Below are positions 12,739 to 62,393 of a stretch of DNA of 64,000 bases, one piece after another. Source of the DNA: Alphaproteobacteria bacterium (GTDB lineage Bacteria; Pseudomonadota; Alphaproteobacteria; VGEJ01); assembly GCA_965226045.1 (NCBI GenBank), contig CBDDBU010000028.1, positions 193,387 to 257,386 on the forward strand. Reading direction: 5' to 3'. The first letter of the stretch is position 1. Each line of letters starts with the position of its first letter. Under the pieces are notes generated by a model that saw only the letters and a program-made list of their open reading frames with translations, did no database searches and was not told where the DNA came from. The translations under genes and the position numbers were made by a program.

Positions 12739-12768
12739 CCACGGGTACCAAGCGTCAGATCCGTGCCA

Positions 12769-14677: not shown

Positions 14678-14689
14678 GGGCGCGGGACG

Positions 14690-16936: not shown

Positions 16937-17012
16937 GCGGCCGTTCGACTTCGGCCGACCGGTCGAGAATAATCAAGGCACTCAAATAGGCGGGTTTAGG
17001 GGAGTTAGCGGG

Positions 17013-23964: not shown

Positions 23965-23979
23965 GGGAAGGGAGAGAAT

Positions 23980-24720: not shown

Positions 24721-24739
24721 CGGCCGAGAGGCGCCAGCC

Positions 24740-25480
24740 GTGCATCTCAACACATTTACGATCGTTGGCCGTTGCGAGCGTACCGGCATGCTGGGTGTGG
24801 CCGTTTGTACCGCCGCGCCCGGCGTCGGTGGCTACTGCCCATTTGTGCGCGCCAAGGCCGGGGCGGTCGCCACCATGTCGTGGGTCAATCCGTATCTCGC
24901 CATCGACGGGCTCAAGTTGATGGGCGAGGGGATGTCGGCGAAGGACGCGCTCGACAAGCTGATCGCGGCCGACCCGGGTCGCGCCGTACGTCAGGTCGGA
25001 ATGGTCGATGCCAAGGGCGGCGGCGCCGCCTATACGGGCGAGGGCTGCGGGCACTGGTGTGGCCACAAGCACGGCAAGAATTTCTCCGCCCAGGGCAACA
25101 TCCTGGTGGGCGAGGGCACGGTTACGGCGCTGGCGGAGACGTTCCAGAACACGGCCGCGCTCGATCTGCCAGAACGGTTGCTGCTGTCGCTTGAGGCGGG
25201 CATGGCGCGTGGTGGCGATGCCCGCGGCAAACAGTCGGCTGGGCTCCTGGTCCACTGGAAAGAGGAATATCCCTACATCGACCTGCGCGCCGACGAGCAC
25301 CGGCATCCGGTGCCCGAGTTGCGGCGCATCTACCAGGTGGCGCTGCACCAGAGCATACCGTTCGTCGCCCAGATGCCGACCCGCGACAATCCGCTCGGCA
25401 GCTTCAGTGCCGAGATCGAGGCCAGCATGAGCGTCGCGCCAGCCTATCGTCGCGGCGGCGGGGGGGGCGAAAGCGCATGA
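24740..25480 (+). CDS. DUF1028 family protein, paralogue 3 (GTG start)
   Basis: GTG 24740 with gagagg RBS gives (M)HLNTFTIVGRCERTG... and the same 246-aa length as paralogues 1/2; ORF-finder start at 24674 rejected. Confidence 0.6.
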   Translation: MHLNTFTIVGRCERTGMLGVAVCTAAPGVGGYCPFVRAKAGAVATMSWVNPYLAIDGLKLMGEGMSAKDALDKLIAADPGRAVRQVGMVDAKGGGAAYTGEGCGHWCGHKHGKNFSAQGNILVGEGTVTALAETFQNTAALDLPERLLLSLEAGMARGGDARGKQSAGLLVHWKEEYPYIDLRADEHRHPVPELRRIYQVALHQSIPFVAQMPTRDNPLGSFSAEIEASMSVAPAYRRGGGGGESA

Positions 25481-29552: not shown

Positions 29553-29619
29553 TAGTGTGCTCCCTTGTCCGATTCTCGTGAATGTCCAAACGGGACGGTA
29601 GGCCATGTCGCCCGGAGAT

Positions 29620-46778: not shown

Positions 46779-46819
46779 CAATTCCTGAGCGTACTTGCCC
46801 CCCCCAGTTCTGGTAGTCC

Positions 46820-48504
46820 TAGCAGCCTGTCGGACTTGAGCCGGGAGTCGAAATAGGATTCGATGGTATCAGTTGATTTGCCCGCGCGTGATGGAGGCCG
46901 TCATGAGCAATTTCCGACCGGTCGACCGGGAGACGGGGTTTCTGCTGCCGCCGTCGGTGGAGGAATGGCTTCCCGAGCGGCATCTGGCGCGCTTCGTGGT
47001 CGAGGTGATCGAGCAGTTGGACCTCTCGGCGTTCGTGAAGGCCTATCGCGGCTCGGGCTCGGCGTCCTATCACCCGAGCATGCTGCTGGGGCTTCTGGTC
47101 TACGGCTACGCCACGGGGGTGTTTTCGAGCCGCAAGTTGGAGCGCGCGACCTATGATTCTGTCGCTTTCCGCTTCATCGCGGCCAACGATCATCCCGACC
47201 ACGATACCATCGCCGCGTTCCGGCGGCGTTTTCTCGACCGGATCGAAGGGCTGTTCGTCGAGGTGCTGCTGCTGGCCCGGGAAGCCGGGGTGCTGAAGCT
47301 CGGCACGGTGGCGCTGGACGGCACCAAGGTGCACGCCAACGCGAGCCGGCACAGCGCGCTGTCGTGGAAACACGCCTGCGAGCTCGAAGCCCGGTTGAAG
47401 GCCGAGGTGGCGGAGTTGATGGCGTTGGCGGAGGCGGCCGATGGGGCGGATGTGCCCGACGGGATGTCGGTGCCCGAGGAACTGGCCCGGCGCGAGGATC
47501 GTCTGGCCCGCATCGCCGAGGCTAAGGCGGTGATCGAGGCGCGGGCGCGCGAACGCCTTGAGCGGGAACGGGCCGAGTACGAGGCGAAGCTCGAGGCGCG
47601 CGCGGAGAAGGCCGAGAAGACGGGCCGCAAGCCGGGCGGCCGTCCACCCGAGCCGCCGGTGGCCGGGCCCGGGCCGAAGGACCAGGTCAATCTGACCGAC
47701 GCGGACTCGCGCATCATGCCGGTGGCCGGCGGCGGCTTCGAACAGGCCTACAACGCCCAAGCCCTGGTGGCGGCCGACAGCCTGCTGGTGGTCACCAACG
47801 ACGTGGTCCAGGCCCCCAACGACAAGCGGCAAATCGAGCCGGCGCTGGAAGCGCTCGCCCGCCTTCCCGAGGCGCTGGGCGCGCCCGAGACCCTGCTGGC
47901 GGACAGCGGCTACTTCAGCGAGGCCAACGTGAACGCCTGCGCCGAGGCCGAGATCGCGCCGTTGATCACGCCCGGCCGGGAACGCCATCATCTCTCCTGG
48001 AAGGACCGCTTCGCCGGCGCGCCGCCGCCCCCGGAGAACCCGACGCCGCTGGAAGCGATGACACATCGACTGGCGACGCCCGAGGGCCGGCAACTCTACG
48101 CCCTGCGCAAGCAAACGCCGGAACCGGTGTTCGGCATCATCAAATCGGCCATGGGCTTCCGCCAGTTCTCGCTACGCGGCCTGGACAAGGTCACGGGCGA
48201 ATGGAACCTGGTGACCCTGGCCTGGAACATAAAGAGAATGTTCACCTTGCAATACGCTTGAGCAGGCGGCCGGACTCCGTACCTCGCGAAAAGGAATAAG
48301 AGTATGCTCGCCTTGCGGCACGCGCGAGCAAGCGAACGTACTTCGTGCCCTCACGAGAGGGCATAAGAGTATACTCACCCTGCGGTACGCGCGGCCAAGC
48401 GACCGCACTCCGTGTCCTCACGAAAGGCGCTCGATCCCATGACCTCTCCACATCGCGATCCGTCCACACCCATTCTCGCGGACCTCAGTCCGACAGGCTG
48501 CTAG
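46820..48504 (+). mobile_element. IS5-superfamily (IS1182-like) insertion sequence, complete copy B
   Basis: 1685 bp; terminal inverted repeats (c)tagcagcctgtcggacttgag ... ctcagtccgacaggctgcta(g); CTAG at both junctions; identical to copies A and C. Confidence 0.85.
46873..48261 (+). CDS. DDE transposase, IS1182/IS5-superfamily
   Basis: 462 aa, identical to 57797-59185 ORF. Confidence 0.85.
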   Translation: MICPRVMEAVMSNFRPVDRETGFLLPPSVEEWLPERHLARFVVEVIEQLDLSAFVKAYRGSGSASYHPSMLLGLLVYGYATGVFSSRKLERATYDSVAFRFIAANDHPDHDTIAAFRRRFLDRIEGLFVEVLLLAREAGVLKLGTVALDGTKVHANASRHSALSWKHACELEARLKAEVAELMALAEAADGADVPDGMSVPEELARREDRLARIAEAKAVIEARARERLERERAEYEAKLEARAEKAEKTGRKPGGRPPEPPVAGPGPKDQVNLTDADSRIMPVAGGGFEQAYNAQALVAADSLLVVTNDVVQAPNDKRQIEPALEALARLPEALGAPETLLADSGYFSEANVNACAEAEIAPLITPGRERHHLSWKDRFAGAPPPPENPTPLEAMTHRLATPEGRQLYALRKQTPEPVFGIIKSAMGFRQFSLRGLDKVTGEWNLVTLAWNIKRMFTLQYA

Positions 48505-48783
48505 CCCGATTGCCAGCCGCCGGAGGCTAGAGGCGGCTCGGTGGGCTGTGTCTTGGCCTGCTCGTAATGCGACGCTTGAGAGAGCGGTTCAACGTCGCGC
48601 TGTCGGGCCATCGGTACGTCAGTACAGGCGTCGAAAACAAGTGGATGAGCTTTTCATCCGAGCTATAACCGAATCTTGTGTACGGCGTTGAAATGAAGGC
48701 GGCGTATCCTGGTGATTGTTGATGTCACCACTTGAGCTAAGCCAAGGAAGGATACGCCATGAAAGAGAATACCGTTGAATCGC

Positions 48784-49713
48784 TTATGCACCAGCTTCCG
48801 GCCGGACCAACATGTTGTAGGTGAAGGGCTTGGTGCACACGGCGATGCCGAACAGCGAGCGGAAGGCGGCGTGGCGTGTCCGGCGCCGGTTGAAGCGGAA
48901 CACGAACTCGTCGAGATAGCTTTGCAGGTGCTTGGCGCGCAGCCCGCGATAGACGCCGCGCGCCCAGCCCTTGAGATTGGAGAACACCTGATGGATCCAG
49001 GGCAGCACGAGGTGGGCGGCCATGGAACCGATGACGTGGGGATCGTGGGTCTCGACGGGGGCCGCGGCGTAGCCGGCCCAGCCGTCGGTCTTGGCGGTGC
49101 TGGCGGCGGCGATGTTGTGGCCGATGAAGCGGTTGCGGCTTTCGGCGCCGTAGGACGCGATCTCGGCCAGGCGCAGGCGGCCCGGCGCGTTGCCGTCGCC
49201 GACCTCGACGGCGCCGACGACGAGCAGCTTGCCGTCGTGGCTGCGCCCGGCGCCGCCGGCCACGGGATCATTCTTGGTGCGGAACGCCAGCGCGGTCTCG
49301 TCGACCTCGATGAGGCCCGACAACGGGTCGCGCTCGGGATCGACCATGGCTTTGCGCAGCTTGGCGGCGAGCAGCCAGGCGCTGCGATAAGAACCGATCC
49401 CGAGCTGGTTCTGGAGCTGCAGCGCCGCGATCCCGTTCGAATGCGTCGCCATCAGGTAGGCGGCCCAGAACCAGACGGTGAGCGCGAGCTTGCTGCCGTG
49501 CAGGATGGTCCCCGCCGTCACCGAGGTCTGGCGATGGCAGCGCGCGCACTCGAACGTGTGGGCCTTGCCGCGTAGCGCCCAGCCGTGATCATGACCGCAG
49601 CGCGGGCATTCGAAGCCCTCGGGCCAGCGCACCGAGGCGAGCCACGCCGCGCAGGCGTCGTCGTGCGGGAACATGCGTTGGAAGGCGATCAGACTGTCGG
49701 GGAAGCGATCCAT
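48784..49713 (-). CDS. IS1595-family (ISXO2-like) transposase
   Basis: N-terminal zinc-ribbon (CPRCGH...CARCHRQTS) and DDE domain typical of IS1595/ISXO2. Confidence 0.85.
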   Translation of the reverse strand: MDRFPDSLIAFQRMFPHDDACAAWLASVRWPEGFECPRCGHDHGWALRGKAHTFECARCHRQTSVTAGTILHGSKLALTVWFWAAYLMATHSNGIAALQLQNQLGIGSYRSAWLLAAKLRKAMVDPERDPLSGLIEVDETALAFRTKNDPVAGGAGRSHDGKLLVVGAVEVGDGNAPGRLRLAEIASYGAESRNRFIGHNIAAASTAKTDGWAGYAAAPVETHDPHVIGSMAAHLVLPWIHQVFSNLKGWARGVYRGLRAKHLQSYLDEFVFRFNRRRTRHAAFRSLFGIAVCTKPFTYNMLVRPEAGA

Positions 49714-49857
49714 GGGGCGGCTCCTGGTAATCGAACAAACCAGGAACCAACTATCCTACAACCACGCCCAACGCAACATCTCGTGCCGCCGGAACGTCGT
49801 GCATAAGCGATTACCGTTGTTGCTTTTCAAAACCCATCTGATTTTCAGAAAGATCCG

Positions 49858-51045
49858 TTGACGGAAGTCCTACAAGCTGGAGCTCGCGAGTTGTTGGCCC
49901 AAGCCGTTGAGGCCGAGGTCTCCGTGTTTTTGGGTAGCCATGCGGCGCTTGTTGACGCCGCCGGCCGCCGCCGGGTTGTCCGCAATGGATATCTGCCGGA
50001 ACGCTTCATCCAGACCGGGATCGGCCCGGTGAGCGTGCGCCAACCCCGTGTGCGGGACCGGGGGGACGGCGCCATCCGCTTCACGTCGGCGATCCTGCCG
50101 CGCTATCTGCGCCGCGCCAAGAGCCTGGAAGACCTTTTGCCATGGCTGTATCTGAAGGGCATTTCCACCGGCGACTTCGGGGAAGCCTTGGCGGCGCTCC
50201 TGGGGAGCTCCGCGCCGGGGCTTTCGGCCTCCACGATCACCCGGCTGAAAGAGGTCTGGGGGGTTGAGGCGGAGCGCTGGCAACGGCGCGACCTCACGGC
50301 CAAGCGCTACGTCTATTTCTGGGTGGACGGCATCTATTTCAGCGCCCGCATGGAGGAAGAGAAGCAGTGCATCCTGGTGATCGTCGGGGCCACGGACAAG
50401 GGACAGAAGGAACTGATCGCCATCGCCGACGGCTATCGCGAAAGTGAGCAGTCCTGGCTCGAAGTTCTGCTCGATCTCAAGCGGCGCGGCCTTGAAATGG
50501 GTCCGCAACTGGCGCTCGGCGACGGCGCGCTCGGCTTCTGGAAGGCGCTCCGCCAAGTCTACCCAGGCGCCCGCGAGCAACGCTGCTGGGTTCACAAGAC
50601 GGGCAACGTCTTGAACAAGCTGCCCAAGGGTCTGCAAAAGAAAGCCAAGGGGCGCCTGCAAGACATCTGGATGGCCGAAACCAGGAAGGATGCCGAGAGC
50701 GCCTTCGACTTCTTCCTGGAAGCCTACGGGCCGAAGTACGACAAGGCCGCGGCCTGCCTGGCCAGGGACCGCGACGTCCTGCTGACGTTCTACGACTTCC
50801 CCGCCGAGCACTGGAAGCATGTACGCACGACCAACCCCATCGAGAGCACGTTCGCCACGGTTCGTCTGCGCACCTACCGGACCAAGGGCTGCCTGTCGCG
50901 CAAGACGGCGATGGCCATGGTCTTCAAACTATGCCAGCGCGCTCAGAGAAAATGGAGAAAACTCGATGGATCGAACCATCTCGCCGAGATCATTCGCGGC
51001 GTCAAATTCGTAGATGGAGAACGCCAGGATCGCGCCGCCGCATGA
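49858..51045 (+). CDS. IS256-family (Mutator-type) transposase (TTG start or 5'-truncated)
   Basis: YVYFWVDGIYFSAR, CWVHKTGNVLNKLP, NPIESTFATVR motifs. Confidence 0.85.
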   Translation: MTEVLQAGARELLAQAVEAEVSVFLGSHAALVDAAGRRRVVRNGYLPERFIQTGIGPVSVRQPRVRDRGDGAIRFTSAILPRYLRRAKSLEDLLPWLYLKGISTGDFGEALAALLGSSAPGLSASTITRLKEVWGVEAERWQRRDLTAKRYVYFWVDGIYFSARMEEEKQCILVIVGATDKGQKELIAIADGYRESEQSWLEVLLDLKRRGLEMGPQLALGDGALGFWKALRQVYPGAREQRCWVHKTGNVLNKLPKGLQKKAKGRLQDIWMAETRKDAESAFDFFLEAYGPKYDKAAACLARDRDVLLTFYDFPAEHWKHVRTTNPIESTFATVRLRTYRTKGCLSRKTAMAMVFKLCQRAQRKWRKLDGSNHLAEIIRGVKFVDGERQDRAAA

Positions 51046-51164
51046 TCAGCCCATACACAACTTTTGACAATAGCTCTTTTCATGTAACTACCCAGGTCTG
51101 ATTGGCCCGAGCGTTTGTATGTGAGGGATCGTGGGGGTCCGGGCTGGTAGCGGTGCCGGTGTTC

Positions 51165-52703
51165 TCAGAGGCGCAGTTGGGGGATTAGTTGCATCGGATC
51201 GGGATGCACCAGGGTCTGGAGGACGTTCCAGCCTTGCTTTCGGGCGGTGGCGATGACGGCACGCATTCTGGCGAAGTTGTAGGCACCCCTCTCGGAGCGG
51301 AAGCCACCGGAGATTTTCTGGCGCAGCTTGGCCATTCGGAGGTCACGTTCGGCCTCATTGTTCGTAAACGGCGTGCGCGGGTCGGTGAGGAATCGCAGGC
51401 ATCCCTCCTTGTGCTTGCGGAGGCGGAGCGCGAGGTTATGACCGATGCGGTGTTTCTTTCGTCCGCGCTTGCCGGTCCGGAGCGGCGGCTGCGCCTCGTG
51501 GAAGGCGATGGCGTGGTCGAGGATGCGGGCCCAGGCCCGCGAGATCCGGGCCACCAGGGAGGCGGGCACGTCGCGGCCGTTCTCACGGGAGAAGCGGGTA
51601 GCCCTGTGTGCGCGCTCAAGGAGGCGGTGCATGCTCTTTGCCCAGTCTTCCTTCTCGATGTCGATCAGGGCCTGGAGTTCGCGCAGGTGATGGGCGTTGC
51701 AGGCGCCGTGGCGCACGCCCTTGAGGGTGAAGTAGGCGGCGTAATCGTCATGGATGAGGATGCCTTCGAGGTCCTTTTCGACATCGCCGCGTCCCGCGCC
51801 GATGCGCAGGACGGTCAGGAATGGGGTGCACAGCACGTGGAGCCAGCGGGTACGGGCGGCGATCCGCAGGCCGGTTTCGTCGAGGTGCTTGACCGGGACC
51901 GCTGTGCGGATCACGTCTGCGACATGGGCGAGGAAGGGCTCGAAGCGCCTGGCGGTTCGCCGGCCCATGGCGGTGATCGTGGCTGTGGAGATGGACACTG
52001 CGAAGAGGTCGCTCATGAGTTCGGCCAAGCGCTTCTCGGGAACGAACTGGGCGTACAGCAGGTAGCTCACCCAGGCGGTGATGCGTGGCCCGTACTGGAC
52101 CGGGGCGGTCACGCCGTCCGGGAAGACGGCTCCTGTCACGGTGGCGCAGGCGCCGCAGAGGCAGCGATGGGCGCGGTGTTCGGTGACCTCCAGGGGGCGT
52201 GGCTCGGGCACATCGAAGACCTGTCGACAGACGGGCGCGCGGTGACGGTCGGCGTCCGACAGCGGTGCGCCGCAGCCCGAACAGGCGGAGGGGTCATGAT
52301 CCACAACATGGTCCGGGCTCTCGGTCCGCGCCAGCGTCGTTCCCTTGTGGCCCGGCTGGCCGCCGCTTGGCCTGCCGGACTTGCCGCGCTGGCTTCGGGT
52401 GCGCCTCTGGGTTCCGCTCTTCTTGCGCAGGCCGTCGCTGGCGGGCGGCTTGCTGCTGGTGGTGCTGTCAAGCGCCGCGCTCCGCTCGAGCTCGGCGATG
52501 CGGTCCCGCAGGGTCGCGTTCTCCCGCTCGAGCGCGGCATTCTCCCGGACGAGCGCCGTGGCCAGGCGCAACAGCCCCTGGCCCCATTCCCGGAAGGCCT
52601 TGACGACTGTGGTTGCGAAGGATGAGGGGTCAAGAAGATCTTGCAGGCACGCGAAGGCCTCGTCATGGGCGGCGAGGTCCTCGTGCCAGCGCGACAGCGT
52701 CAC
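51165..52703 (-). CDS. IS66-family transposase TnpC
   Basis: 512 aa; leucine-zipper N-term, CxxC...CxxC zinc ribbon, DDE region (HLDETGLRIAAR...) typical of IS66 TnpC; no tnpA/tnpB upstream. Confidence 0.85.
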   Translation of the reverse strand: MTLSRWHEDLAAHDEAFACLQDLLDPSSFATTVVKAFREWGQGLLRLATALVRENAALERENATLRDRIAELERSAALDSTTSSKPPASDGLRKKSGTQRRTRSQRGKSGRPSGGQPGHKGTTLARTESPDHVVDHDPSACSGCGAPLSDADRHRAPVCRQVFDVPEPRPLEVTEHRAHRCLCGACATVTGAVFPDGVTAPVQYGPRITAWVSYLLYAQFVPEKRLAELMSDLFAVSISTATITAMGRRTARRFEPFLAHVADVIRTAVPVKHLDETGLRIAARTRWLHVLCTPFLTVLRIGAGRGDVEKDLEGILIHDDYAAYFTLKGVRHGACNAHHLRELQALIDIEKEDWAKSMHRLLERAHRATRFSRENGRDVPASLVARISRAWARILDHAIAFHEAQPPLRTGKRGRKKHRIGHNLALRLRKHKEGCLRFLTDPRTPFTNNEAERDLRMAKLRQKISGGFRSERGAYNFARMRAVIATARKQGWNVLQTLVHPDPMQLIPQLRL

Positions 52704-53365
52704 GGGTCCTCGGCATCGACGGCCATCATGGCGGCCAGCACCGCGAGGCGTTCGCCCGCCGGCAAGGCCTTGTAACGCCGGCCCCAGTTGGCCGCCTTAC
52801 GCTTGATGCGCTGGCGGTCGGTGAAGTTCCGGCCTGCGTAGCTCGCCCAATGCACCCGGTCGGGCGCGAAGTTGAACCACACGACCTCGGTCCGCACCTG
52901 GGCCTGGGTCGTCACCTGCAGCGCCAGACTGCGCCAGCCCGCCAGCATCTCGTCATAGAGCGCCGAGGGATGGCCCGAGACCATCACCTGGCAGGGCAGA
53001 TCCTTGAGCAGGTCCAGGAGCGCGACATGGTCGACCTCCTCGTAGTCGAAGCGATAGCGCCGTGCCGAACGGCGGGTCGCGTGCAGATAGGGGGGATCGC
53101 TGTAGACCAGCTCCGGGCCCAGAAACGGGAACGAGGCCAAAAAGGCATGGGCACAGCCATGCACCAACTCGACCGGGTAGTCACAGGCAAAGGCCTCGAG
53201 CGCCTGCGCATCGCGGTCGATGCCGATCGAGCGCACGCCCGTTGGCTTGCGCTTCATCAGCGCACCGCCCCCCAGGTGGCTCTCGATGTAAACGCTGTGC
53301 GGCGGCATCAGCGCAATCAGCGCCTGGCACAGACCGCTCGTCGCCTTCGACCCGAAATATCCCAC
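52700..53365 (-). CDS. DNA N6-adenine methyltransferase, D12 class (Dam-like orphan MTase)
   Basis: GYFGSK (motif I-like), DPPY motif IV, VMVSGHPSALYDEM; 4-nt overlap with IS66 tnpC start. Confidence 0.65.
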   Translation of the reverse strand: MGYFGSKATSGLCQALIALMPPHSVYIESHLGGGALMKRKPTGVRSIGIDRDAQALEAFACDYPVELVHGCAHAFLASFPFLGPELVYSDPPYLHATRRSARRYRFDYEEVDHVALLDLLKDLPCQVMVSGHPSALYDEMLAGWRSLALQVTTQAQVRTEVVWFNFAPDRVHWASYAGRNFTDRQRIKRKAANWGRRYKALPAGERLAVLAAMMAVDAEDP

Positions 53366-53699
53366 GCGCCGCTCCCGTCACACGAGAGCGCAACCCATAG
53401 ACGCCCGATTCTATGGAGTCAAGAGACGATCAACGACGCGGCGGCGGAAACCCGGCCCCGGCGACCACCTACATCATCCTCTCGCGGTCAGGAGCGGGGT
53501 ACCTGGGTAGTTACCTTTTCGATCCTCTATGCTAGCTATGACCAGTTCTGACCTCTATTGCTCGACGGTCAGGTTGCCGCGCGCGACACCATGTTTGAAA
53601 TGGGCTCGTTGGAGACCGATCCTTGTGCCGCATTAGAACGGCTCAACCAAGCCCGTGGTCACCGCCATTCGTGCCGCTCGTTCTTCTTTTGTGCGTAGC

Positions 53700-54650
53700 G
53701 GAACTGGCATCAGCACCCCCCGACAGCAGCTCACGATAATCCGAGCGCGTCCACGGCACAAGCCGGTCTCCTCGGCGCCGGGGACAATGCGCAGTATGTG
53801 AGTAGCGGTGGACGGGCCGCGCCTGTGCGAATCTGGTCGTCGTCCCAGCGCCGCGCGCCATCATCGTGGCCGTTCACCGGCTTCAACGACTACAGCAATG
53901 CCTTTGATCGGGCGGCGACAGCATGGTGGGCGGCGCGCGGCGTTCAGACCTATGCATATGACCAGCGGGGGTTTGGTGCGACTGCGAGGTCGGCATCTGG
54001 CCGGGCTCGGAGGCGTTGATAAAGCCATCTCTGCGCCTTTCTGGTTCTCGTGGGCGCCCGCCATCCGAGTATCAATCGCTTCATCTCCTGGGACTTAGCA
54101 TGGGCGGTGCCGTGGTTCTGGCCTCGGAGGGCGGCGCCGTCTGTCGAAATCGGGTCGCGGTGTCAAACCTTCAATTATTCTGGTCGCTCCGGCCGTCTCC
54201 GCGGGGCGATCGACGCTCGGCCTGATCGCGCGCGCCACGTTGTGGCTGGGCGCCCACGTTCTCACCGCCCTTCACGTCAACGAAAGCGGGCTCCAGATCA
54301 CTCCGTCGGACAATGACGAGGTCCTGAGGGAACTCTCGGCGGAACCGCTGGTCATCAAGAATACGCCATCGATGCCGTGAACGGTCAAAAGGATGGTCAA
54401 TCTCATGGACACGGCACTGCTATCGGCGCCACGCATGAGGACGGAGACGCTTGTTCTCTATGGCGCGCGTGACGAGATCATGGGGATGAGCCGAACCGAC
54501 ACACCGGCCATGATCGCCGCCTGGCGCGGCCCGCTGCCGATTCGCCTTCTATCCAGGCGGTTATCACATGTTGTTGCGTGACCGCGATGCCGAGACCGTC
54601 TGGGGCGACGTGTTGGCCTGGATCGACGATGCGACGGCGCCGCTGCCGTC
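53700..54650 (+). pseudogene. Alpha/beta-hydrolase (lysophospholipase/monoacylglycerol-lipase-like) gene, multiple frameshifts
   Basis: Fragments in three frames: YDQRGFGAT, nucleophile elbow HLLGLSMGGAVVLA, C-terminal LVLYGARDEIM. Confidence 0.55.
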
Positions 54651-54728
54651 GGTCCGATGACCAGTGATTCCATCAGACTGCATGCGCAAGACTCGCGGTG
54701 ATAGCTCGCTGATAGGTGAGAGCCCGCT

Positions 54729-56000
54729 ATGCCGAATTTAAGGGTCAATCAGGATCGGCTGTGGAAAAGCCTGATGGACATGGCGCGGATTGGCGCCACG
54801 GAAAAGGGTGGGGTGTGCCGGCTTGCGCTCACCGAGCTCGATCGGGTCGAGCAGGGACCTGTTTGGTGCTTGGTGCTGTGACGCGGGCTTGCGGCGTCAC
54901 CGTGGACCAGTTCGGTAACATCTTCGCGCGGCGCCCGGGGCGCGACGACACGCTGGCGCCGGTCATGACGGCAGCCACCTCGATAGCCAACCCACGGGCG
55001 GCAGGAAGTCACGGGGCCTACGGTGTGCTCGCGGGGCTTGAGGAAGCTGCGCACGCTGAACTGCCGACTATTTGACGGAGGCGCCGATCGAGGTCGTCGT
55101 CTGGACCAACGGCAGGAAGGCTCACGCTTTTCACCGCCGATGATTGGCTCGGGTGTTTTCGCCGGCCTCTTTGATCGGTCGACGATCACGCGGCCAACAG
55201 CGGACGCCGATGGCCGCATGCAGGATGAGAGGCGCTCGAGGCCATCGGTTACGCGGGCGAGGCGGCTGCCGGGCGAGCGGTCGGCGCCTATCTTCGAGGC
55301 GCATATCGAGCAAGCCGTCCCATCCTCGAAGCAGAGGACAAGGTGATCGGCGCGGTCACCGGAGCCCAGGGCCAGCGCTGGTATTCCGTGGTGGTTCGTC
55401 GGTGAGGAGGCCCACTGGCGCCGACGCACGACGCCCATGCCGAGGCGCAAGGCGCTGCCCTCCTCGGGGCCGCGCGCCTGGTCACGGAGGTCCAGGATCG
55501 CGCTCGCCCATGCGCCCCACGCCTGTCAGGCACGGTCGGCGTGCTCCGTTCGAGCCCGAACTCGCGGAACGTGATCCCGGGTTCGGTGGAGCTTACGGTC
55601 GATCTACGTCATCCCGACGACCGCGAACTCTCCGTCCTCAGACGGCAAGTTGCGTCGCGGCGTGCAGGCGATCGCCGATGAGATCGGCCTGGCGAGACTC
55701 GATATCGAGCAGGACTACGACACCGCGGCGGTTCCGTTCGACGATGTGTGCATCGAGGCTCGTGCGCACCGCCGCCAATGACGCGGCTACACCCATCGCG
55801 ACATCGATCAGCGGCGCTGGGCACGATGCGGTCAACATCTCGCAGCAAGTCGCCCCAACGGGCATGATTTTCATCCCCTGCGAGGCGGCGTCAGCCATAG
55901 CCGGCGAGAGAACGCGCGCTCCGATCACATCGCGGCGGGTGCAACGTGTTGATGGACGCCATGGTGGCGCATGGCCGATCGACGTTGACGCCGAAGAGTC
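54729..56000 (+). pseudogene. Allantoate amidohydrolase / N-carbamoyl-L-amino-acid hydrolase-like (M20 family) gene, heavily frameshifted
   Basis: MPNLRVNQDRLWKSLMDMARIGATEKGGVCRLALTELDRVEQ..., GVTVDQFGNIFARRPGRDDTLAPVMT, GAYGVLAGLEEA, VVWTNGRK..SPPMIGSGVFAGLFDR are in different frames of one collinear homologue. Confidence 0.6.
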
Positions 56001-56379
56001 CTGCGAACCGCATCCGGCGAACGGCTGGCGCCTGCATGATCGCGGTCGACGATGGCGGCCATCTTCCGCGCCGGTGGCGCAGACCGTTCGTGAACCCGAT
56101 ACGACGTCTTTTGAACGACGCGATTTGGCTGGGTTCATCGGACCGTATGGCCGATTTGCTGACCTCCCTGGCTCGCCCGAATATCTACGCAGCGTCGCTC
56201 AGGGTGGGCAACCCTCGTTTTTCGCCCGCCTTGGAAAATTAGCCTTCCGTTCGCCGCACGTTCGTCGTCGGTGGAAGGGCAGGGCGGCTGGGCCTTTCCT
56301 GCAACACCTGCCACCCCAATGGCGGCGCCAATGCCGACTTCTTTGTCGAGGGACTCTCAGATCGTCCCGGCAGCGTCGA

Positions 56380-57312
56380 CGCGAGCCATGCCTTCTGGAA
56401 CCGCCGCGCCGACGATGGCTTCTTCAATCCGGTCAACGTTCCTTCGCTGCGCGGCGTGCGGTTGACCGCGCCCTACGGCCGCGACGGCCGCTTCGCGAGC
56501 CTGGCTGAATTCACACGCCACGTCATCGGTCACCGAGTTGCGGCGGCGATGAACCGGAACCTCTGATTCTTGACGCCCTGGTCGCCTATCAGCTCGATCT
56601 AGCGCTTCTGCCCAACCCTCTAGTGGATGCAGGTGGCCAGCTCGCGGCGGCGGCGCTGCCGCGGGCCCGCGCGGCCGCGGGGCTGTTCGCGCGCGACTGC
56701 GGTGGTTGCCACGGCCCCGACGGCGGCTTCGTCGACGGCCGCCGCCACGATGTGGGAACGGATGGGCACTTCGATACGCCGGTCCTGCTCGGCCTGGCCG
56801 AATCGGCGCCCTACTTCCATGACGGACGCGCCGCCGATCTCGCCGCCGTCGTGGATCATTTCGATGAGGTGTGGTCGCTTGGATACGATCTTGACGAACG
56901 CCGGGCGATGATTGCCTACCTTGAGGCCGTCGGCGCCGTGGACAGACGTCGCGAACCCATCACACTTTCCGCGACCGTGGCCGCATTGCAGGACTTCGCC
57001 GCGCTCGTGAGGGAACCGCTGGAGAGTGAGGACGCCGCGCTCGTAGACCTCGTCGTCGATATGGTTCGTCTCGAGATCGGTCGCCTCCACCAACGCTTTC
57101 CGGCGCCCGAGCACGGTGCGGCGCGGCAAACGATCGCCGGCTGGGCGCACGCGCTGCGCCGCGTCGCGCGCCTGGCGGAGCAGGGAGCATTTCCAGCGGC
57201 CAGAACCGCCCTCGTGGGTTGGCATGCCGACGTGGCGGACTCGTGGCCGTCGTTGGAGACAGTGGCGCGCACGTCTTTGTTCAACCCGCGGGCGATCCCG
57301 CCTGCGGGCTGA
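56380..57312 (+). pseudogene. Di-haem cytochrome c peroxidase/MauG-like gene remnant (C-terminal haem domain readable)
   Basis: Unannotated frame reads FWNRRADDGFFNPVNVPSLRGVRLTAPYGRDGRFASLAEF then stop; ORF 56623-57312 carries CGGCHG haem motif and FDTPVLLGLAESAPYFHDGRAADLAAVVDHF. Confidence 0.5.
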
Positions 57313-57365
57313 TCAGGCGATCGCGACCGTGTAGCCTGGATCCGAACTCGCAGCAGGAGAAAACA

Positions 57366-57746
57366 ATGCCCAGCCAACCCGTGATCCCCAAAGGCGCCGC
57401 GCCGCCGCTCGCGCCGTATTCGCCTGGAACGCGCGCCGGCGACACCGTGTACGTTGCCGGCACTGTCGCCCTCGACGGTGAGGGCAACGTTGTCGGCGTC
57501 GGGGATATCCGGGCCCAGACGCGTCATGTCCTCGAGTCGGTCAAGGCGGTGATCGAGGCGGCGGGCGGAAGCCTCGCCGATGTCGCGTTCAATCAGATAT
57601 TTCTCAAGGACTACGCCGACTACGCCGGCATGAACGAGGTGTACCGCGAGTACTTCTCCGCCGACCCACCAGCTCGCTATTGCATCAAGGCGGACCTCGT
57701 CAAGCCGGAGTTTCTGGTCGAGATCGCCTCGACCGCCCACCTCTAG
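57366..57746 (+). CDS. ridA: RidA family (YjgF/TdcF) reactive-intermediate deaminase
   Basis: 126 aa; [16 protein letters not shown]...ARYCIKADL; aggaga RBS; stop TAG coincides with IS copy C terminal CTAG. Confidence 0.85.
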
Positions 57747-59427
57747 CAGCCTGTCGGACTTGAGCCGGGAGTCGAAATAGGATTCGATGGTATCAGTTGA
57801 TTTGCCCGCGCGTGATGGAGGCCGTCATGAGCAATTTCCGACCGGTCGACCGGGAGACGGGGTTTCTGCTGCCGCCGTCGGTGGAGGAATGGCTTCCCGA
57901 GCGGCATCTGGCGCGCTTCGTGGTCGAGGTGATCGAGCAGTTGGACCTCTCGGCGTTCGTGAAGGCCTATCGCGGCTCGGGCTCGGCGTCCTATCACCCG
58001 AGCATGCTGCTGGGGCTTCTGGTCTACGGCTACGCCACGGGGGTGTTTTCGAGCCGCAAGTTGGAGCGCGCGACCTATGATTCTGTCGCTTTCCGCTTCA
58101 TCGCGGCCAACGATCATCCCGACCACGATACCATCGCCGCGTTCCGGCGGCGTTTTCTCGACCGGATCGAAGGGCTGTTCGTCGAGGTGCTGCTGCTGGC
58201 CCGGGAAGCCGGGGTGCTGAAGCTCGGCACGGTGGCGCTGGACGGCACCAAGGTGCACGCCAACGCGAGCCGGCACAGCGCGCTGTCGTGGAAACACGCC
58301 TGCGAGCTCGAAGCCCGGTTGAAGGCCGAGGTGGCGGAGTTGATGGCGTTGGCGGAGGCGGCCGATGGGGCGGATGTGCCCGACGGGATGTCGGTGCCCG
58401 AGGAACTGGCCCGGCGCGAGGATCGTCTGGCCCGCATCGCCGAGGCTAAGGCGGTGATCGAGGCGCGGGCGCGCGAACGCCTTGAGCGGGAACGGGCCGA
58501 GTACGAGGCGAAGCTCGAGGCGCGCGCGGAGAAGGCCGAGAAGACGGGCCGCAAGCCGGGCGGCCGTCCACCCGAGCCGCCGGTGGCCGGGCCCGGGCCG
58601 AAGGACCAGGTCAATCTGACCGACGCGGACTCGCGCATCATGCCGGTGGCCGGCGGCGGCTTCGAACAGGCCTACAACGCCCAAGCCCTGGTGGCGGCCG
58701 ACAGCCTGCTGGTGGTCACCAACGACGTGGTCCAGGCCCCCAACGACAAGCGGCAAATCGAGCCGGCGCTGGAAGCGCTCGCCCGCCTTCCCGAGGCGCT
58801 GGGCGCGCCCGAGACCCTGCTGGCGGACAGCGGCTACTTCAGCGAGGCCAACGTGAACGCCTGCGCCGAGGCCGAGATCGCGCCGTTGATCACGCCCGGC
58901 CGGGAACGCCATCATCTCTCCTGGAAGGACCGCTTCGCCGGCGCGCCGCCGCCCCCGGAGAACCCGACGCCGCTGGAAGCGATGACACATCGACTGGCGA
59001 CGCCCGAGGGCCGGCAACTCTACGCCCTGCGCAAGCAAACGCCGGAACCGGTGTTCGGCATCATCAAATCGGCCATGGGCTTCCGCCAGTTCTCGCTACG
59101 CGGCCTGGACAAGGTCACGGGCGAATGGAACCTGGTGACCCTGGCCTGGAACATAAAGAGAATGTTCACCTTGCAATACGCTTGAGCAGGCGGCCGGACT
59201 CCGTACCTCGCGAAAAGGAATAAGAGTATGCTCGCCTTGCGGCACGCGCGAGCAAGCGAACGTACTTCGTGCCCTCACGAGAGGGCATAAGAGTATACTC
59301 ACCCTGCGGTACGCGCGGCCAAGCGACCGCACTCCGTGTCCTCACGAAAGGCGCTCGATCCCATGACCTCTCCACATCGCGATCCGTCCACACCCATTCT
59401 CGCGGACCTCAGTCCGACAGGCTGCTA
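57744..59427 (+). mobile_element. IS5-superfamily (IS1182-like) insertion sequence, complete copy C
   Basis: Same 1.68-kb unit and IRs as copy B, CTAG at both junctions. Confidence 0.85.
57797..59185 (+). CDS. DDE transposase, IS1182/IS5-superfamily
   Basis: 462 aa identical to copy B ORF. Confidence 0.85.
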   Translation: MICPRVMEAVMSNFRPVDRETGFLLPPSVEEWLPERHLARFVVEVIEQLDLSAFVKAYRGSGSASYHPSMLLGLLVYGYATGVFSSRKLERATYDSVAFRFIAANDHPDHDTIAAFRRRFLDRIEGLFVEVLLLAREAGVLKLGTVALDGTKVHANASRHSALSWKHACELEARLKAEVAELMALAEAADGADVPDGMSVPEELARREDRLARIAEAKAVIEARARERLERERAEYEAKLEARAEKAEKTGRKPGGRPPEPPVAGPGPKDQVNLTDADSRIMPVAGGGFEQAYNAQALVAADSLLVVTNDVVQAPNDKRQIEPALEALARLPEALGAPETLLADSGYFSEANVNACAEAEIAPLITPGRERHHLSWKDRFAGAPPPPENPTPLEAMTHRLATPEGRQLYALRKQTPEPVFGIIKSAMGFRQFSLRGLDKVTGEWNLVTLAWNIKRMFTLQYA

Positions 59428-59555
59428 GACCGGCGCCCCCTGGATCGAACGCCGCCTAACCTCACCAACCCAGGCGGATGCTTGCGCCGATGGCACCAGG
59501 GGCACAACGGTGATGATGTATATCCGCTATCCGCTGTCGCTGCGCCCGGTTGACG

Positions 59556-60452
59556 CTATCGTCCCATATCGACGGGGCGGCCCATTAAGCCCTGAGGCCG
59601 ATAGAACAGGATCGCGATGACAATGACGATGGTGATCGCCTCGCGATACTCGAGCAGCGAGCGCGGCAGGTAGGCGCGCAGGAACACCTCGACCAGACCT
59701 AACAGGAAGCCGCCCACGACCGCGCCCGGCAGGCTGCCGAGCCCGCCGAGAATCACGGCGATGAACGCCTTTAACACCGGGACCAGGCCCATCGCCGGCC
59801 GCACCCCGCCAGCTTGCGCCACCCATAACATGCCCGCGACCCCGGCCAGCACGCCGGAGAGGGCGAAAGCCGTCGCGATGACGGCGTTGGCGCGAATGCC
59901 CATCAGCCGGGTGGTCTGAAAATCGACCGAGGCGGCGCGCATCGCCAACCCGAGCATGGTCCAGCGCAGGAAAACGGTGAGGCCGACCAGCAGCAGCACC
60001 GTCGCGACGATCGACAATGCCTGAATCGAGCCGATGACCAGCTCGCCGATGGAGAGCGCCTCCTTGAAGAATGCGGGTGTGACGATCGCCTTGCCACGCG
60101 GGCTGATCGCGTTTTGAAACAGAATCTGCAGCAGCGCCGAAATGGCGAAGCTCGTCAGCAGCATCGATGCCGGGCTCGCGTCGCGCACCGGGCGAAACCC
60201 GATCCGTTCCATTAGGACCGCCGCAAGCGCGGTCACGAGAATACCAAGGGCGACGGCCGGCCAGAACGGCAGGGCGAACACGACGAGTCCGGCCAAGATC
60301 GAGTAGCCGCAGATCGTCAAGAGCTCGCCGTGCGCGAAGTTGATCAGCCCCAGGATACCGAACACCAAGGCGAGCCCGAGAGCCAGCAACGCGTAGACGC
60401 CACCGAGGGCGAGCGCGTTGATCAGGTTTTGGAGAAGCTCGCCCACGTTCAA
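59556..60452 (-). CDS. livH: Branched-chain amino acid ABC transporter permease LivH
   Basis: 298 aa, LivH-type TM profile. Confidence 0.85.
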   Translation of the reverse strand: MNVGELLQNLINALALGGVYALLALGLALVFGILGLINFAHGELLTICGYSILAGLVVFALPFWPAVALGILVTALAAVLMERIGFRPVRDASPASMLLTSFAISALLQILFQNAISPRGKAIVTPAFFKEALSIGELVIGSIQALSIVATVLLLVGLTVFLRWTMLGLAMRAASVDFQTTRLMGIRANAVIATAFALSGVLAGVAGMLWVAQAGGVRPAMGLVPVLKAFIAVILGGLGSLPGAVVGGFLLGLVEVFLRAYLPRSLLEYREAITIVIVIAILFYRPQGLMGRPVDMGR

Positions 60453-61162
60453 ACGTCGGCCAGGCCCATATAGGCGCGTTCGACCCCGCTCGAGGCCGCG
60501 AGCTCGTCCGCGGTTCCGGCCATGGCGACCTCGCCGTTGCGCAAGACATAGCCGCGATCGGCGATCTCCAGCGCCAGGTCGACACTCTGCTCGACGAGAA
60601 GGATCGTCAGGCCGCCGTCCCGCAAGCGCGGGATCAGCTCGAAGATCGCATCCACCACCTGTGGCGCCAGCCCAAGCGAGGGCTCGTCCAACAACAACAG
60701 CCGTGGCCGCGACATCAACGACCGTGCGATGGCCAGCATCTGCTGCTCGCCGCCTGAGAGGGTCCCGGCCAGCTGCGAACGCCGCTCCGCCAAAACCGGG
60801 AACAGCGCGAACATCTCGTCGCGGGTCTTCTCCACGCCGTCGCGATCGCGCCGGGTCGCGCGGCCGAGCGCTAGGTTTTCATCGATTGTGAGGTTGGGAA
60901 ACACATGCCGCCCTTCGGGCGTGAGGGTCATGCCGAGGCGGACGATCCGCTCCGGCGCGAGTCCGGCGATGGGGCGCGCCTCGAACGAGACATCGCCACT
61001 CGCCATCGGCACCAGCCCCATCAGCGCACTCAAGGTAGAACTCTTGCCCGCACCGTTGGCTCCGAGCAGCGCGACGATCTCGCCTTCGGAGACTGCGAGG
61101 CTCAAGCCGTGCACCGCCTGTACGGCGCCATACGACACCGCGAGATCGGAAACGGTGAGCAT
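60449..61162 (-). CDS. livF: Branched-chain amino acid ABC transporter ATP-binding protein LivF
   Basis: Walker A GANGAGKSS, signature LSGGEQQML, Walker B LLLLDEPS. Confidence 0.9.
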   Translation of the reverse strand: MLTVSDLAVSYGAVQAVHGLSLAVSEGEIVALLGANGAGKSSTLSALMGLVPMASGDVSFEARPIAGLAPERIVRLGMTLTPEGRHVFPNLTIDENLALGRATRRDRDGVEKTRDEMFALFPVLAERRSQLAGTLSGGEQQMLAIARSLMSRPRLLLLDEPSLGLAPQVVDAIFELIPRLRDGGLTILLVEQSVDLALEIADRGYVLRNGEVAMAGTADELAASSGVERAYMGLADV

Positions 61163-61193
61163 CTCGGTGCGGGCAAAAGCGGTTACAGGCGAC

Positions 61194-62393
61194 CTACTCG
61201 TTGTCGACCGTATAGTTCACGGCCGACGGCGCCACCAAGTCGCCAGCCGGATCAACTTTGGCGAAGCCGACGCGCTGACTGCTCTTGACGCCGACGATGT
61301 AGACCGACCGGATGGGGTTGCGTTCGGTGCCCTTGAAGGTGATTGGACCCGTCACGCCGGGCCAATTCTCCAAGTTGGCGAACGCCGATTTGATCTTGGC
61401 CCGATCCAGCACACCCGCGTTCTCCACCGCCGCCGCGATGGCCTTCACGAGCTCGTAGGCAAGGACGTAGTTCGCCGCGCTCACCTTGTCCCCGGTGCGC
61501 TTTTCGTAGCGGTCGAAAAAGTCGGCGACGTCGGCCGACAGCGACGGATCGGCGCCGGTGGTCAACACGAAGCCTTCCGAGACATCGCCGAGCGCGAAGG
61601 TGGACGCACTGTCGGCGCCGTCACTCCCCACCACCGCGGTCTTGATTCCGGCCTGGCGCAGTTGAGTCAGAAAGGCGCCGATGTCGGGATCGAAGGCCGA
61701 GGTGTGGATCACGTCGGGCTCCTGGTCGAGGTTCTTGATCTTTGTGACCTCGGCGCTGAAGTCTTGCTGCTCGAGGCTGTAGACGCCCCAGCCCACGACC
61801 TCGCCGCCGAGCTTCTCGAACGACCAGGCGAAGTAACCCGGCAGAAGTTCGGTATACGGAATATCATGCGACACCAGCAGATATGCCGTGCGGTAACCCT
61901 GGTCCCACGCGTACTGGGCCATCGCCGCGCCTTGTAGATTGTCGGCCGTGAACCACGTGAACAGGCTGTCGCCGACCATCGCCGGCAGCGTCGGACTGGA
62001 CGCCGATGACGACACGGTGAGGATGCCCAACGGATGGGTGACCTGGGCCACCGCTACCGAGGGATCGACATCGGTGGGCGAGATCACCACATGCGCCCCC
62101 CAATCCGCCATCTCCTGGGCGCACACGGCGCTCGCCGGCACCTCCGAGCGAATGTCTTGCACTCGATAGTCGATCTTCCACTTGCCGGCTATGCCGCCGG
62201 CCGCGTTGATCTCGTCGACCGCCATTTGGGCGCCGTTGGCATTGGGCTCACCGACAATGCCCAAATTGCCGGAGATGCCCTCGCAGAAGCCGAGCTTCAA
62301 GTCCTCGGTCTGGGCCTCGATGGCAAGGCCCATTGTTAGGGTAAATGCGGCAACCGTACCCACCGATCTCGCGAACGTTGTCAGTCGTCTCAT
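61194..62393 (-). CDS. ABC transporter substrate-binding protein (LivJ/K-like, periplasmic binding protein type I)
   Basis: 399 aa with signal peptide; Peripla_BP_6-like. Confidence 0.8.
   Translation of the reverse strand: MRRLTTFARSVGTVAAFTLTMGLAIEAQTEDLKLGFCEGISGNLGIVGEPNANGAQMAVDEINAAGGIAGKWKIDYRVQDIRSEVPASAVCAQEMADWGAHVVISPTDVDPSVAVAQVTHPLGILTVSSSASSPTLPAMVGDSLFTWFTADNLQGAAMAQYAWDQGYRTAYLLVSHDIPYTELLPGYFAWSFEKLGGEVVGWGVYSLEQQDFSAEVTKIKNLDQEPDVIHTSAFDPDIGAFLTQLRQAGIKTAVVGSDGADSASTFALGDVSEGFVLTTGADPSLSADVADFFDRYEKRTGDKVSAANYVLAYELVKAIAAAVENAGVLDRAKIKSAFANLENWPGVTGPITFKGTERNPIRSVYIVGVKSSQRVGFAKVDPAGDLVAPSAVNYTVDNE

Follow-up and report, generated by a model that had tools for sequence, protein, structure and literature searches.

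Does a stretch of chromosome bracketed by two identical insertion sequences (IS) in direct orientation represent a composite transposon, or did the two elements arrive separately? The question is raised by a locus within 64,000 nucleotides of alphaproteobacterial DNA (here termed the window), for which a composite-transposon-like structure enclosing a 'gene graveyard' had been proposed. Copy B of the IS occupies 46819–48504 of the forward strand (core 46823–48500, with a CTAG duplication at 46819–46822 and 48501–48504), and copy C occupies 57743–59428 of the same strand (core 57747–59424, with CTAG on each side), its left flank being the ridA site. Exact extension shows that B and C are each 1,686 bp in length and 100% identical, their starts lying 10,924 bp apart. 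A third copy, A (1–1476, forward strand, right CTAG at 1473–1476), is represented by its 3′ 1,476 bp, the 5′ end lying past the edge of the window; it is 100% identical to the corresponding part of B and C and has the same orientation. The positions originally predicted for the three copies were right to within 1 bp, and the suggestion that all have the same nucleotide sequence and orientation is confirmed. In our reading, to which we assign a probability of about 80%, B and C would be independent insertions of a high-copy, CTAG-specific element of the IS1182 family into an IS nest that already existed, the junction at C is a hybrid, and the lesions in the enclosed genes are errors.

The transposase of copies B and C falls into the IS1182 family, with a score of 363.8 bits against NF033551 (NCBIfam; cutoff 270); the same protein falls well short of the cutoffs of IS5-type models. 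The domains PF05598 (DUF772), PF01609 (DDE_Tnp_1) and PF13751 (DDE_Tnp_1_6) all exceed their gathering scores. The gene lies on the forward strand at 46903–48264 in copy B and 57827–59188 in copy C, encoding 452 amino acids plus a stop codon from the ATG at 46903. This ATG, with GGAGG located 5 nt upstream, is the likelier start than the TTG from which a 462-aa product had been predicted. The exact 452-aa protein is on record in 363 contigs, and no called gene with the 462-aa product was found. The core of the element comprises 1,678 bp, and its terminal inverted repeats are perfect over 18 bp with the CTAG included (CTAGCAGCCTGTCGGACT), or (CTAG)CAGCCTGTCGGACT when written with the target. 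The organization CTAG–IS–CTAG is found at 17 of 17 distinct sites in the window and the fetched loci, with no other repeat seen, and the CTAG is single where the site is empty. Copies within this lineage differ by 0–1 substitutions. With a single DDE transposase, short inverted repeats, a length of ~1.7 kb and a short target duplication the element resembles members of the IS1182 family such as ISAzo1 of Aromatoleum aromaticum, from which it differs in having a nucleotide identity of only 69%. The other nearest relative in the plasmid database is carried by a Mesorhizobium sp. plasmid (74%), and because the best plasmid-borne relatives have just 69–74% nucleotide identity the element is, on sequence grounds, an unnamed member of the family.

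A 2OG-Fe(II) oxygenase gene starts 38 bp downstream of copy B. The comparison with related genomes for an empty site, proposed with the original prediction, gives a clean result. In four related assemblies (L011, L012/L104, L102 and L103) the sequence reads ...GGTAGTC-CTAG-CCCGATT..., with one CTAG and no IS, and the flanking sequences are 99.84–100% identical to those of the window. By this comparison copy B is a recent simple insertion that occurred in the window lineage only. Copy C is inserted into a CTAG that includes the TAG stop codon of a Rid-family gene (RutC type; 57366–57746, forward strand), which is intact as predicted (126 aa; TIGR03610, 178.9 bits, cutoff 169.1). Its empty site is found in L017, with the arrangement ridA-CTAG-nhaD/CitMHS and again a single CTAG. 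L011, L102 and L103 have the same left flank with an IS1182 element in the same CTAG as C, followed in every case by CitMHS. Copy A is present as a full-length element with the same flanks in three related contigs (L098–L100). Judged by this distribution, copies A and C are older than B. The argument that identical copies indicate recent transposition thus holds for B, which is absent from every related assembly, and is uninformative for A and C; old copies are expected to be identical as well, because the whole population differs by only ~0.03–0.2%.

These sites bear directly on the possibility that B, C and the intervening cargo constitute a true compound transposon, which came here as a 12.6-kb unit using its outer ends. 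B and C are complete, identical and direct, they bracket a segment of DNA, and their outer inverted repeats are intact; moreover compound elements with direct IS copies exist, as in Tn9 with IS1. Yet the sequences to the left and right of B are contiguous in the four relatives, joined by one CTAG, and the cargo (IS256 and the hydrolase–M20–MauG–Rid cluster) occupies the corresponding chromosomal position in relatives without B. In these, B alone is missing, and the cargo and C are both retained. C has an empty site of its own, and the block occurs at no other locus among the 112 that were fetched. A compound transposition is therefore scarcely credible, and movement of the whole as a composite transposon is rejected on the separate CTAG duplications, the separate empty sites and the differing ages of the two copies. 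The resemblance to Tn9 (with direct IS1 copies), Tn10 and Tn5 lies in two complete copies of one IS bracketing DNA. Unlike those elements, the B–C unit gives no sign of ever having moved, its arms differ in age, and its cargo is the native chromosomal neighbourhood together with other ISs rather than a captured selectable gene. Later mobilization of B–C as a compound element is conceivable, because both outer ends of the unit are intact.

The interior of the B–C segment contains what had been listed for it, namely IS1595, IS256 and IS66 elements, a methyltransferase gene, three frameshifted genes and the Rid gene. The IS256-family element (48660–51076, forward strand; NF033543, 320 bits) amounts to ~1,375 bp once the IS1595-family element that interrupts it is discounted, and its transposase gene lies at 49858–51045. 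It has the features of its family, i.e. a Mutator-type transposase, imperfect inverted repeats (GAGCTAT...TTGTGTA.GG) and a 9-bp duplication, TTTTCATCC, at 48651–48659 and 51077–51083, the right part of which continues beyond the IS66-family element. It occupies this site in all the relatives, and its transposase is intact (414 aa) in L103. The IS1595-family element (48778–49812, reverse strand; 1,035 bp; inverted repeat AATCGCTTATGCAC; NF033547, 169.6 bits) interrupts the IS256 transposase gene after codon 6 and is flanked by a 7–8-bp duplication, (T)ACCGTTG, as seen by comparison with the uninterrupted L011 and L103. It encodes a transposase of 309 aa (48784–49713, reverse strand; PF12760 and PF12762) with the N-terminal zinc ribbon that, like the inverted repeats and the duplication, is a feature of the family. 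Its presence at this position is private to the window.

The IS66-family element (51084–53514, reverse strand; 2,431 bp; inverted repeat GTAACTACCCAGGT) contains two overlapping open reading frames and scores 291 bits against NF033517 (cutoff 180). It is flanked by an 8-bp duplication, CTTTTCAT, at 51076–51083 and 53515–53523 by comparison with the uninterrupted L011. It is absent from L011 and L102, the same site is occupied in L103, and a copy in L110 matches the element at 100% identity. A TnpC-like transposase (tnp512; 51165–52703, reverse strand; 512 aa; NF033517), inverted repeats starting GTAA and the 8-bp duplication are all traits of the family. No canonical tnpA or tnpB was found upstream of tnpC, nor any match to PF01527 or PF05717. 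The sole other reading frame (orf221; 52700–53365, reverse strand) encodes a DNA-methyltransferase-like protein of 221 aa with a DPPY motif, which matches phrog_56 with E = 9e-20. From these features the element is a non-canonical variant that would work like the IS66 family.

To the right of the IS66-family element lie the remnants of three genes on the forward strand, encoding an alpha/beta hydrolase (53625–54701), an allantoate-amidohydrolase-type M20 enzyme (54716–55988) and a MauG/di-haem-peroxidase-like protein (56052–57312). All are frameshifted in the window; they were mapped via alignment to L011, and their families were assigned on the intact L011 proteins. These are the genes of the supposed graveyard. 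Although the sequence as given does contain the frameshifts, the same genes are intact in three of three long related contigs (345, 415 and 415 aa), and open in L108, a JGI metagenome contig that is 96.3% identical. Over 4.2 kb, 193 differences are private to the window; only four of them lie outside an indel-rich island at 53521–56258, which contains 86 of the 90 lesion clusters at a spacing of ~1 per 32 bp. Both the hydrolase and the M20 genes are destroyed by this island, as is the MauG-like gene at its 5′ end. The island begins 6 bp from the end of the IS66-family element, and ends at an unremarkable point.

The spectrum of the lesions is unnatural. There are 47 insertion events (102 bases, 1–8 nt each) and 15 deletion events (24 bases), few of which are in homopolymers and most of which are not multiples of three. 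These 62 indel events compare with 69 mismatched positions. Isolated substitutions comprise 4 transitions and 18 transversions, compared with 7 and 5 among the relatives. Across these 4,150 bp three relatives, from as many samples, are 4–12 substitutions apart with no indels, and the natural divergence between L108 and L011 in this region amounts to 90 mismatches and one gap. The density of lesions is ~3% per bp (~7% of aligned columns), compared with <0.05%, and no indels, in the flanks and the IS66-family element. The private lesions are thus ~60-fold denser than in the flanks, with a density and spectrum at odds with neutral evolution in the DNA around them. Outside the island, identity between the window and its relatives is at least 99.8%.

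Real pseudogenes, decayed in this lineage by relaxed selection or local hypermutation, would account for the frameshifts at face value; IS nests often hold dispensable DNA, and an imuA-imuB-dnaE2 mutagenesis cassette lies ~10 kb upstream. However, neutral decay cannot outrun that of unconstrained neighbouring DNA of equal age, and the IS66-family element has had the same residence time as the adjacent cargo, as L103 carries this insertion too. Bacterial mutation is biased towards deletions, and the 3 to 1 ratio of insertions to deletions is the opposite. Together with the excess density, the indel-rich and transversion-rich spectrum and the sharp boundaries, this makes true decay very unlikely. 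Since the lesions are indel-rich, insertion-biased, transversion-rich and sharply bounded, and the genes are intact in relatives, the likeliest cause is a local error in the consensus of this sequence record. Two observations count against an artefact. A simple coverage dip does not explain such sharp boundaries, and a contig of 3x coverage, from an assembly with the same IS variant, has ~0.4% indel error compared with the ~7% here. If the island were real it might have arisen in one lineage by localized, insertion-biased hypermutation or error-prone resynthesis, starting where the IS66-family element ends on its right, with the loss of three genes while DNA a few bases from the island stayed pristine. 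This is highly unlikely.

The right flank of copy C has a different origin from the left. It comprises a branched-chain-amino-acid-type ABC transporter operon on the reverse strand (59429–64000; assigned by Pfam), with livH (59556–60452), livF (60449–61162), a transporter binding protein gene (61194–62393) and a livM-livG fusion (62390 onwards). This sequence is 99.94% identical to L013, L105 and L106, where the livH flank follows another IS1182 copy, the other side of which is the otsB/IS256 region. The livH and ridA loci are on different contigs in relatives from two samples. Because the sequence to the right of C flanks another IS1182 copy in the relatives, and is not the ancestral nhaD/CitMHS, the junction is a hybrid, either a product of recombination between two IS copies or an assembly mis-join. 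Mismatched target duplications, the usual signature of IS–IS recombination, give no signal here because all IS1182 copies duplicate an identical CTAG, and since the copies are identical there is no polymorphism by which a crossover could be mapped. A single look-up for the reciprocal inversion junction (otsB side–IS–CitMHS), which returned one contig, did not find it.

An assembler could have jumped through the identical 1.7-kb repeat, which is present at five or more loci, and the true neighbour of C would then be nhaD/CitMHS. This would explain why CitMHS follows this copy in all three of the long related contigs, why the livH flank lies behind another identical copy on other contigs, and why the Rid–IS1182–livH arrangement is private to the window; in addition the low-quality island 1.5 kb to the left of C suggests weak read support in that part of the contig. 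On the other hand 1.7 kb is normally spanned by long-read assemblies. Copy B and the IS1595-family element, which are private and have perfect duplications, cannot be assembly artefacts, and the strain is therefore truly different. IS-rich genomes often undergo IS-mediated inversion, a related contig (ctg123485) also has a large rearrangement near here, and a change of sign in GC skew exactly at 59 kb fits, if weakly, with an inverted segment. A mis-join is quite possible, if less likely than not. Were it to have occurred the B–C bracket would still be real, with the sequence to the right of 59428 derived from elsewhere.

A plausible history starts with insertion of IS256, with its 9-bp duplication, between the oxygenase gene and the hydrolase–M20–MauG-like–Rid cluster. 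Copy C would then have entered the CTAG containing the Rid stop codon, between the Rid gene and nhaD/CitMHS, and copy A likewise ~45 kb upstream. The IS66-family element may have followed, inserting into the right-hand IS256 duplication with formation of its 8-bp duplication. Finally, two insertions would have occurred in this lineage only, the IS1595-family element entering the IS256 transposase gene at codon 6 and B, as a new IS1182 copy, entering a CTAG upstream of the oxygenase gene. The hybrid junction could result from homologous recombination between two identical IS copies, giving an inversion or translocation, if not from a jump by the assembler; its formation by deletion would require the loss of at least ~486 kb.

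Structural polymorphism in the population, as had been predicted, is directly visible between assemblies. Those with ~99.8–99.98% flank identity differ in the presence of B, the presence of the IS66-family element, the position of IS1595 and the right flank of C. The specific products envisaged are not among them; no B–C or A–B deletion junction and no circle junction was observed in the related assemblies. Known IS-expanded genomes include Bordetella pertussis with IS481, Burkholderia mallei with IS407A and Yersinia pestis with IS100. The present region is like these in its many identical ISs, ISs inserted into ISs, presence or absence between strains and exchange of flanks consistent with homologous recombination. 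It differs in belonging to an uncultivated alphaproteobacterial population known from metagenome assemblies alone, where at the level of contigs the rearrangement junction is indistinguishable from a mis-join.

The region is an example of ordinary IS-driven genome churn. Two cautions arise. Identical flanking ISs, where there are two, do not make a composite transposon, and pseudogenes called on one metagenome contig may turn out to be artefacts of the consensus; this contig may also be mis-joined at 59428. The significance is modest. The analysis defines an unnamed IS1182-family element that is very abundant and strict in its CTAG target, and public assemblies alone document IS-driven structural polymorphism at the strain level in an uncultivated alphaproteobacterial population.

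The repeated element in the window is an unnamed new member of the known IS1182 family. Copies B (46819–48504) and C (57743–59428), delimited by exact repeat extension, are each 1,686 bp, stand in direct orientation 10,924 bp apart, and are 100% identical. Copy A (1–1476, delimited in the same way) is identical to the 3′ part of B and C, the window edge cutting off the rest. The original prediction had deduced the identity of the copies from their translations, and both this and the coordinates are correct at the nucleotide level. The termini are perfect 18-bp inverted repeats, with the terminal CTAG counted. The open reading frame scores 363.8 bits on the NCBIfam IS1182-family transposase model (cutoff 270), with DUF772, DDE_Tnp_1 and DDE_Tnp_1_6 domains. 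The start is likely the ATG at 46903, with GGAGG 5 nt upstream, giving 452 aa. Exact-protein look-up of the collection found this form in 363 contigs (380 blocks of the collection) and no called gene for a 462-aa form beginning at TTG, which was rejected as a wrong start. Long antisense ORFs (431 aa) inside the IS lie in 70% G+C DNA and match no family. In the plasmid collection the best matches to the element are 69–74% identical (a Mesorhizobium sp. plasmid; ISAzo1), with no close copy there.

In the ten loci fetched by the 452-aa transposase and in later loci the copies have identical end bases and are 99.5–100% identical. At 17 distinct sites the arrangement is CTAG|IS|CTAG with no other flanking repeat. 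Two independent empty sites have a single CTAG, and the element is thus 1,678 bp in length, its 4-bp target, CTAG, being duplicated on insertion. The window is poor in CTAG (33 sites vs 72–205 expected), and five of the 33 are IS junctions. A literature search on IS1182 target specificity found nothing usable.

Exact-protein look-ups led to the same chromosomal neighbourhood in other assemblies, the source contig of the window not being among the comparators. The 573-aa long form of Oxc returned nothing and was discarded as a wrong start; the Frc query worked. The long relatives are ERZ21829562 ctg257332l (loci L011, L016, L098 and L101), ERZ28669063 ctg5068 (L099 and L102) and ERZ28763718 ctg123485 (L100, L103 and L112). 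There are also short-read contigs (L012/L104 and L017) and the JGI contig Ga0315336_1024212 (L108), which is 96–97% identical. Flanking DNA of window and comparators is 99.8–99.98% identical, and they are strains of one population; the G+C content is ~65%.

Each of the three long relatives has copy A between the same flanks, and this copy is an old insertion. Copy B is a simple insertion private to the window. All four comparators covering its site read ...GGTAGTC-CTAG-CCCGATT... without the IS, and in the window the IS lies between two CTAGs, exactly at the single CTAG of the comparators. Copy B is located 38 bp upstream of a 2OG-Fe(II) oxygenase gene (137 aa). The possibility that B truncates this gene was dismissed, as it is also 137 aa in relatives without B. 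The window contains other repeats, namely three 104-nt repeats at 1840–2860 and, at 23224–25480, three tandem units of ~756–760 bp (64–76% identical) that are three consecutive paralogous ORFs of ~246 aa.

Copy C is an old insertion with a foreign right flank. In the ridA-side loci of the long relatives (L011, L102 and L103) an IS1182 element is found at the same CTAG, always followed by the CitMHS/NhaD gene, and the 98% identical contig L017 has the empty site, ridA-CTAG-CitMHS. A RutC-type Rid gene ends in this CTAG (57743–57746 in the window), its stop codon being the TAG; duplication of the 4 bp restores the stop, so that the gene stays intact. To the right of copy C the window has a livHFK-MG-type ABC operon instead of CitMHS/NhaD. 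In relatives from two samples (L013/L105 and L106) this operon, 99.94% identical, lies behind another IS1182 copy, on the other side of which is an IS256/otsB/otsA region, in contigs other than that of the ridA locus. The two flanks of copy C in the window thus come from two IS loci, the left from one and the right from the other. In these relatives the ABC-transporter operon (window 59.5–64 kb) is bracketed by two inverted IS1182 copies (L106 4198–5883, and L105), and a fourth copy would be expected within ~1 kb past position 64000.

Homologous recombination between identical IS copies would be expected to yield such an exchange of flanks, and we would give this origin a probability of about 0.6. 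Contigs alone present the same picture if the assembler jumped through the 1.7-kb repeat, and a mis-join of this kind is the less probable explanation, though a substantial one. Because the copies of the lineage are identical and all duplicate CTAG, C offers no crossover point and no mismatched duplication to score, and mapping of the crossover within the copy failed for that reason. The reciprocal inversion junction was not found, look-up of the CitMHS/NhaD protein returning only the known ridA-IS-CitMHS arrangement. If the junction arose by recombination, the lengths of the flanking contigs mean that a deletion would have taken out at least ~486 kb; an inversion or translocation is the more plausible event.

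Several further insertions lie between B and C. An IS256-family element (48660–51076), with the 9-bp duplication TTTTCATCC, is at the same site in every relative. Its right-hand duplication is the insertion point of an IS66-family element (51084–53514; inverted repeat GTAACTACCCAGGT, 8-bp duplication CTTTTCAT) that is present in L103 and absent from L011 and L102. Codon 6 of the IS256 transposase gene is followed by an IS1595-family element (48778–49812), whose insertion made a (T)ACCGTTG duplication. Only the window has an IS1595 at this point; in L102 one lies ~200 bp deeper in the gene, and what L011 retains is a 170-bp remnant at a third position. The insertions are independent and nested, and what B and C enclose is therefore native chromosomal neighbourhood with other ISs added. 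A second IS256-family element is located at 29613–31063, with a 431-aa transposase. A copy on ctg257332l (L016 17379–18829), 4.3 kb beyond the CitMHS gene, is 100% identical to it, and one in L001 is 96% identical.

B and C had been proposed to form a composite-transposon-like structure. A compound transposon would be recognized by a single duplication around the whole unit, by the unit at another location, or by an empty site lacking the whole unit. None of these is seen in the loci fetched, and the block stays put in relatives that lack copy B, so that the likeness to compound transposons is one of outline only. The outer ends of both copies are intact and the B–C unit may conceivably be mobilized in future, with no sign of past movement.

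The IS1182 element is itself a target. The octamer TCAGTTGA near its left end (positions 51–58; window equivalent 46869–46876) has taken repeated insertions. These include a full IS1595 in L011 (18126–19162), L102 (2134–3179) and L013 (about 4956–6188), and in L011 and L102 it is the IS1182 at the site of copy C that carries this interruption. A 180-bp MITE-like element is found at the octamer in both orientations (L013 3086–3265; L009 about 9786–9966). Its inverted repeat AAGGCTTATCCCTCTG is related to that of IS1595, and each insertion has a TCAGTTGA duplication. Copies B and C of the window are uninterrupted at this position, and the left end of A lies beyond the window.

The three genes taken to be decayed, the supposed gene graveyard, are intact in all three long relatives. 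They encode an alpha/beta hydrolase (345 aa), an M20 enzyme of the allantoate-amidohydrolase type (415 aa; NF006769, 655 bits) and a MauG/di-haem-like protein (415 aa). Among species-representative genomes the intact M20 protein has only 60–67% relatives, first in Alphaproteobacteria MAGs (Hyphomicrobiales, Rhodospirillales) with some in Beta- and Gammaproteobacteria. Over the 4,150 bp from the IS66-family element to C the relatives differ among themselves by 4–12 substitutions, without a single indel. Differences private to the window number 193 over the same length, all but four within an island at 53521–56258; they comprise 69 mismatches together with 47 insertion events (102 bases, 1–8 nt each) and 15 deletion events (24 bases). 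There are 90 lesion clusters overall, 86 of them in the island at ~one per 32 bp. Isolated substitutions in the window are 4 transitions vs 18 transversions, compared with 7 vs 5 among the relatives. This spectrum is unlike natural divergence, which between L108 and L011 gives 90 mismatches and one gap in this region.

Outside the island, identity between the window and its relatives is at least 99.8%. The adjoining IS66-family element, the same insertion as in L103 and of the same age at the site, is free of indels and matches a copy elsewhere at 100% identity. A lesion density ~60-fold above that of adjacent unconstrained DNA, together with the insertion bias and sharp bounds, cannot come from neutral decay. 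The island is most likely a local consensus error in the record, a stretch of raw-read quality. Sequencing error of the homopolymer type was rejected, accounting for just 8 of the 47 insertions and 4 of the 15 deletions. Two observations sit badly with a consensus error: it does not explain why the island starts 6 bp beyond the IS66-family element, and a contig of 3x coverage with the same IS66-family variant has only ~0.4% indel error. A real, localized hypermutation event nevertheless seems very improbable.

Structural polymorphism of the region, as anticipated in the original prediction, is borne out by direct comparison between assemblies; none of the deletion or circle products foreseen for B–C and A–B was observed. 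On ctg123485 (L100 and L103) the oxc-frc part (window 1–17262) and the dnaE2-to-ridA part (36365–59428) are separated by ~163 kb and inverted relative to each other; the two parts are collinear in the window and two other contigs. The breakpoint is in the interval (window about 17.3–36.4 kb) that holds the second IS256-type element, and the arrangement would indicate a further large rearrangement or a mis-assembly. In L108 the hydrolase gene is fused at its middle (window 54207) to the start of the UDG gene (45832), the junction lying at 1445–1452. The UDG gene, 2OG-oxygenase gene, IS256 site and 5′ half of the hydrolase gene are missing there, by either natural deletion or a short-read chimera.

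The IS66-family element has neither tnpA nor tnpB. A 221-aa ORF overlaps the start of its 512-aa transposase gene by 4 bp, and has the Dam-like motifs ESHLGGGAL and DPPY. It matches the phage DNA-methyltransferase family phrog_56 (E = 9e-20) and, weakly, Pfam D12 and TIGR00571. The ORF pair is kept in all six copies seen (window 51084–53514; L103 5988–8418; L109 9189–11620; L110 433–2862 and 4730–7160; L111 9190–11620), and the exact 221-aa protein is present in 602 contigs. A literature search on IS66-family elements that carry a methyltransferase yielded nothing of use. Between the window copy and the same-site copy of L103 there are 12 substitutions (10 transversions) and not one indel, and ERZ25074053 has a copy 100% identical to that of the window; either gene conversion among the copies or the existence of sample-specific IS variants is suggested.

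The original observation is thus confirmed, and its interpretation supported in part. Taken as a whole, the region is an IS nest in an IS-expanded genome and shows what usually comes with one: ISs inserted into other ISs, polymorphism of presence and absence, and exchange of flanks. The structure is ordinary, and the dead genes, part of what seemed most striking, are probably an artefact. The predicted methyltransferase-like accessory gene of the IS66-family element perhaps deserves separate attention.
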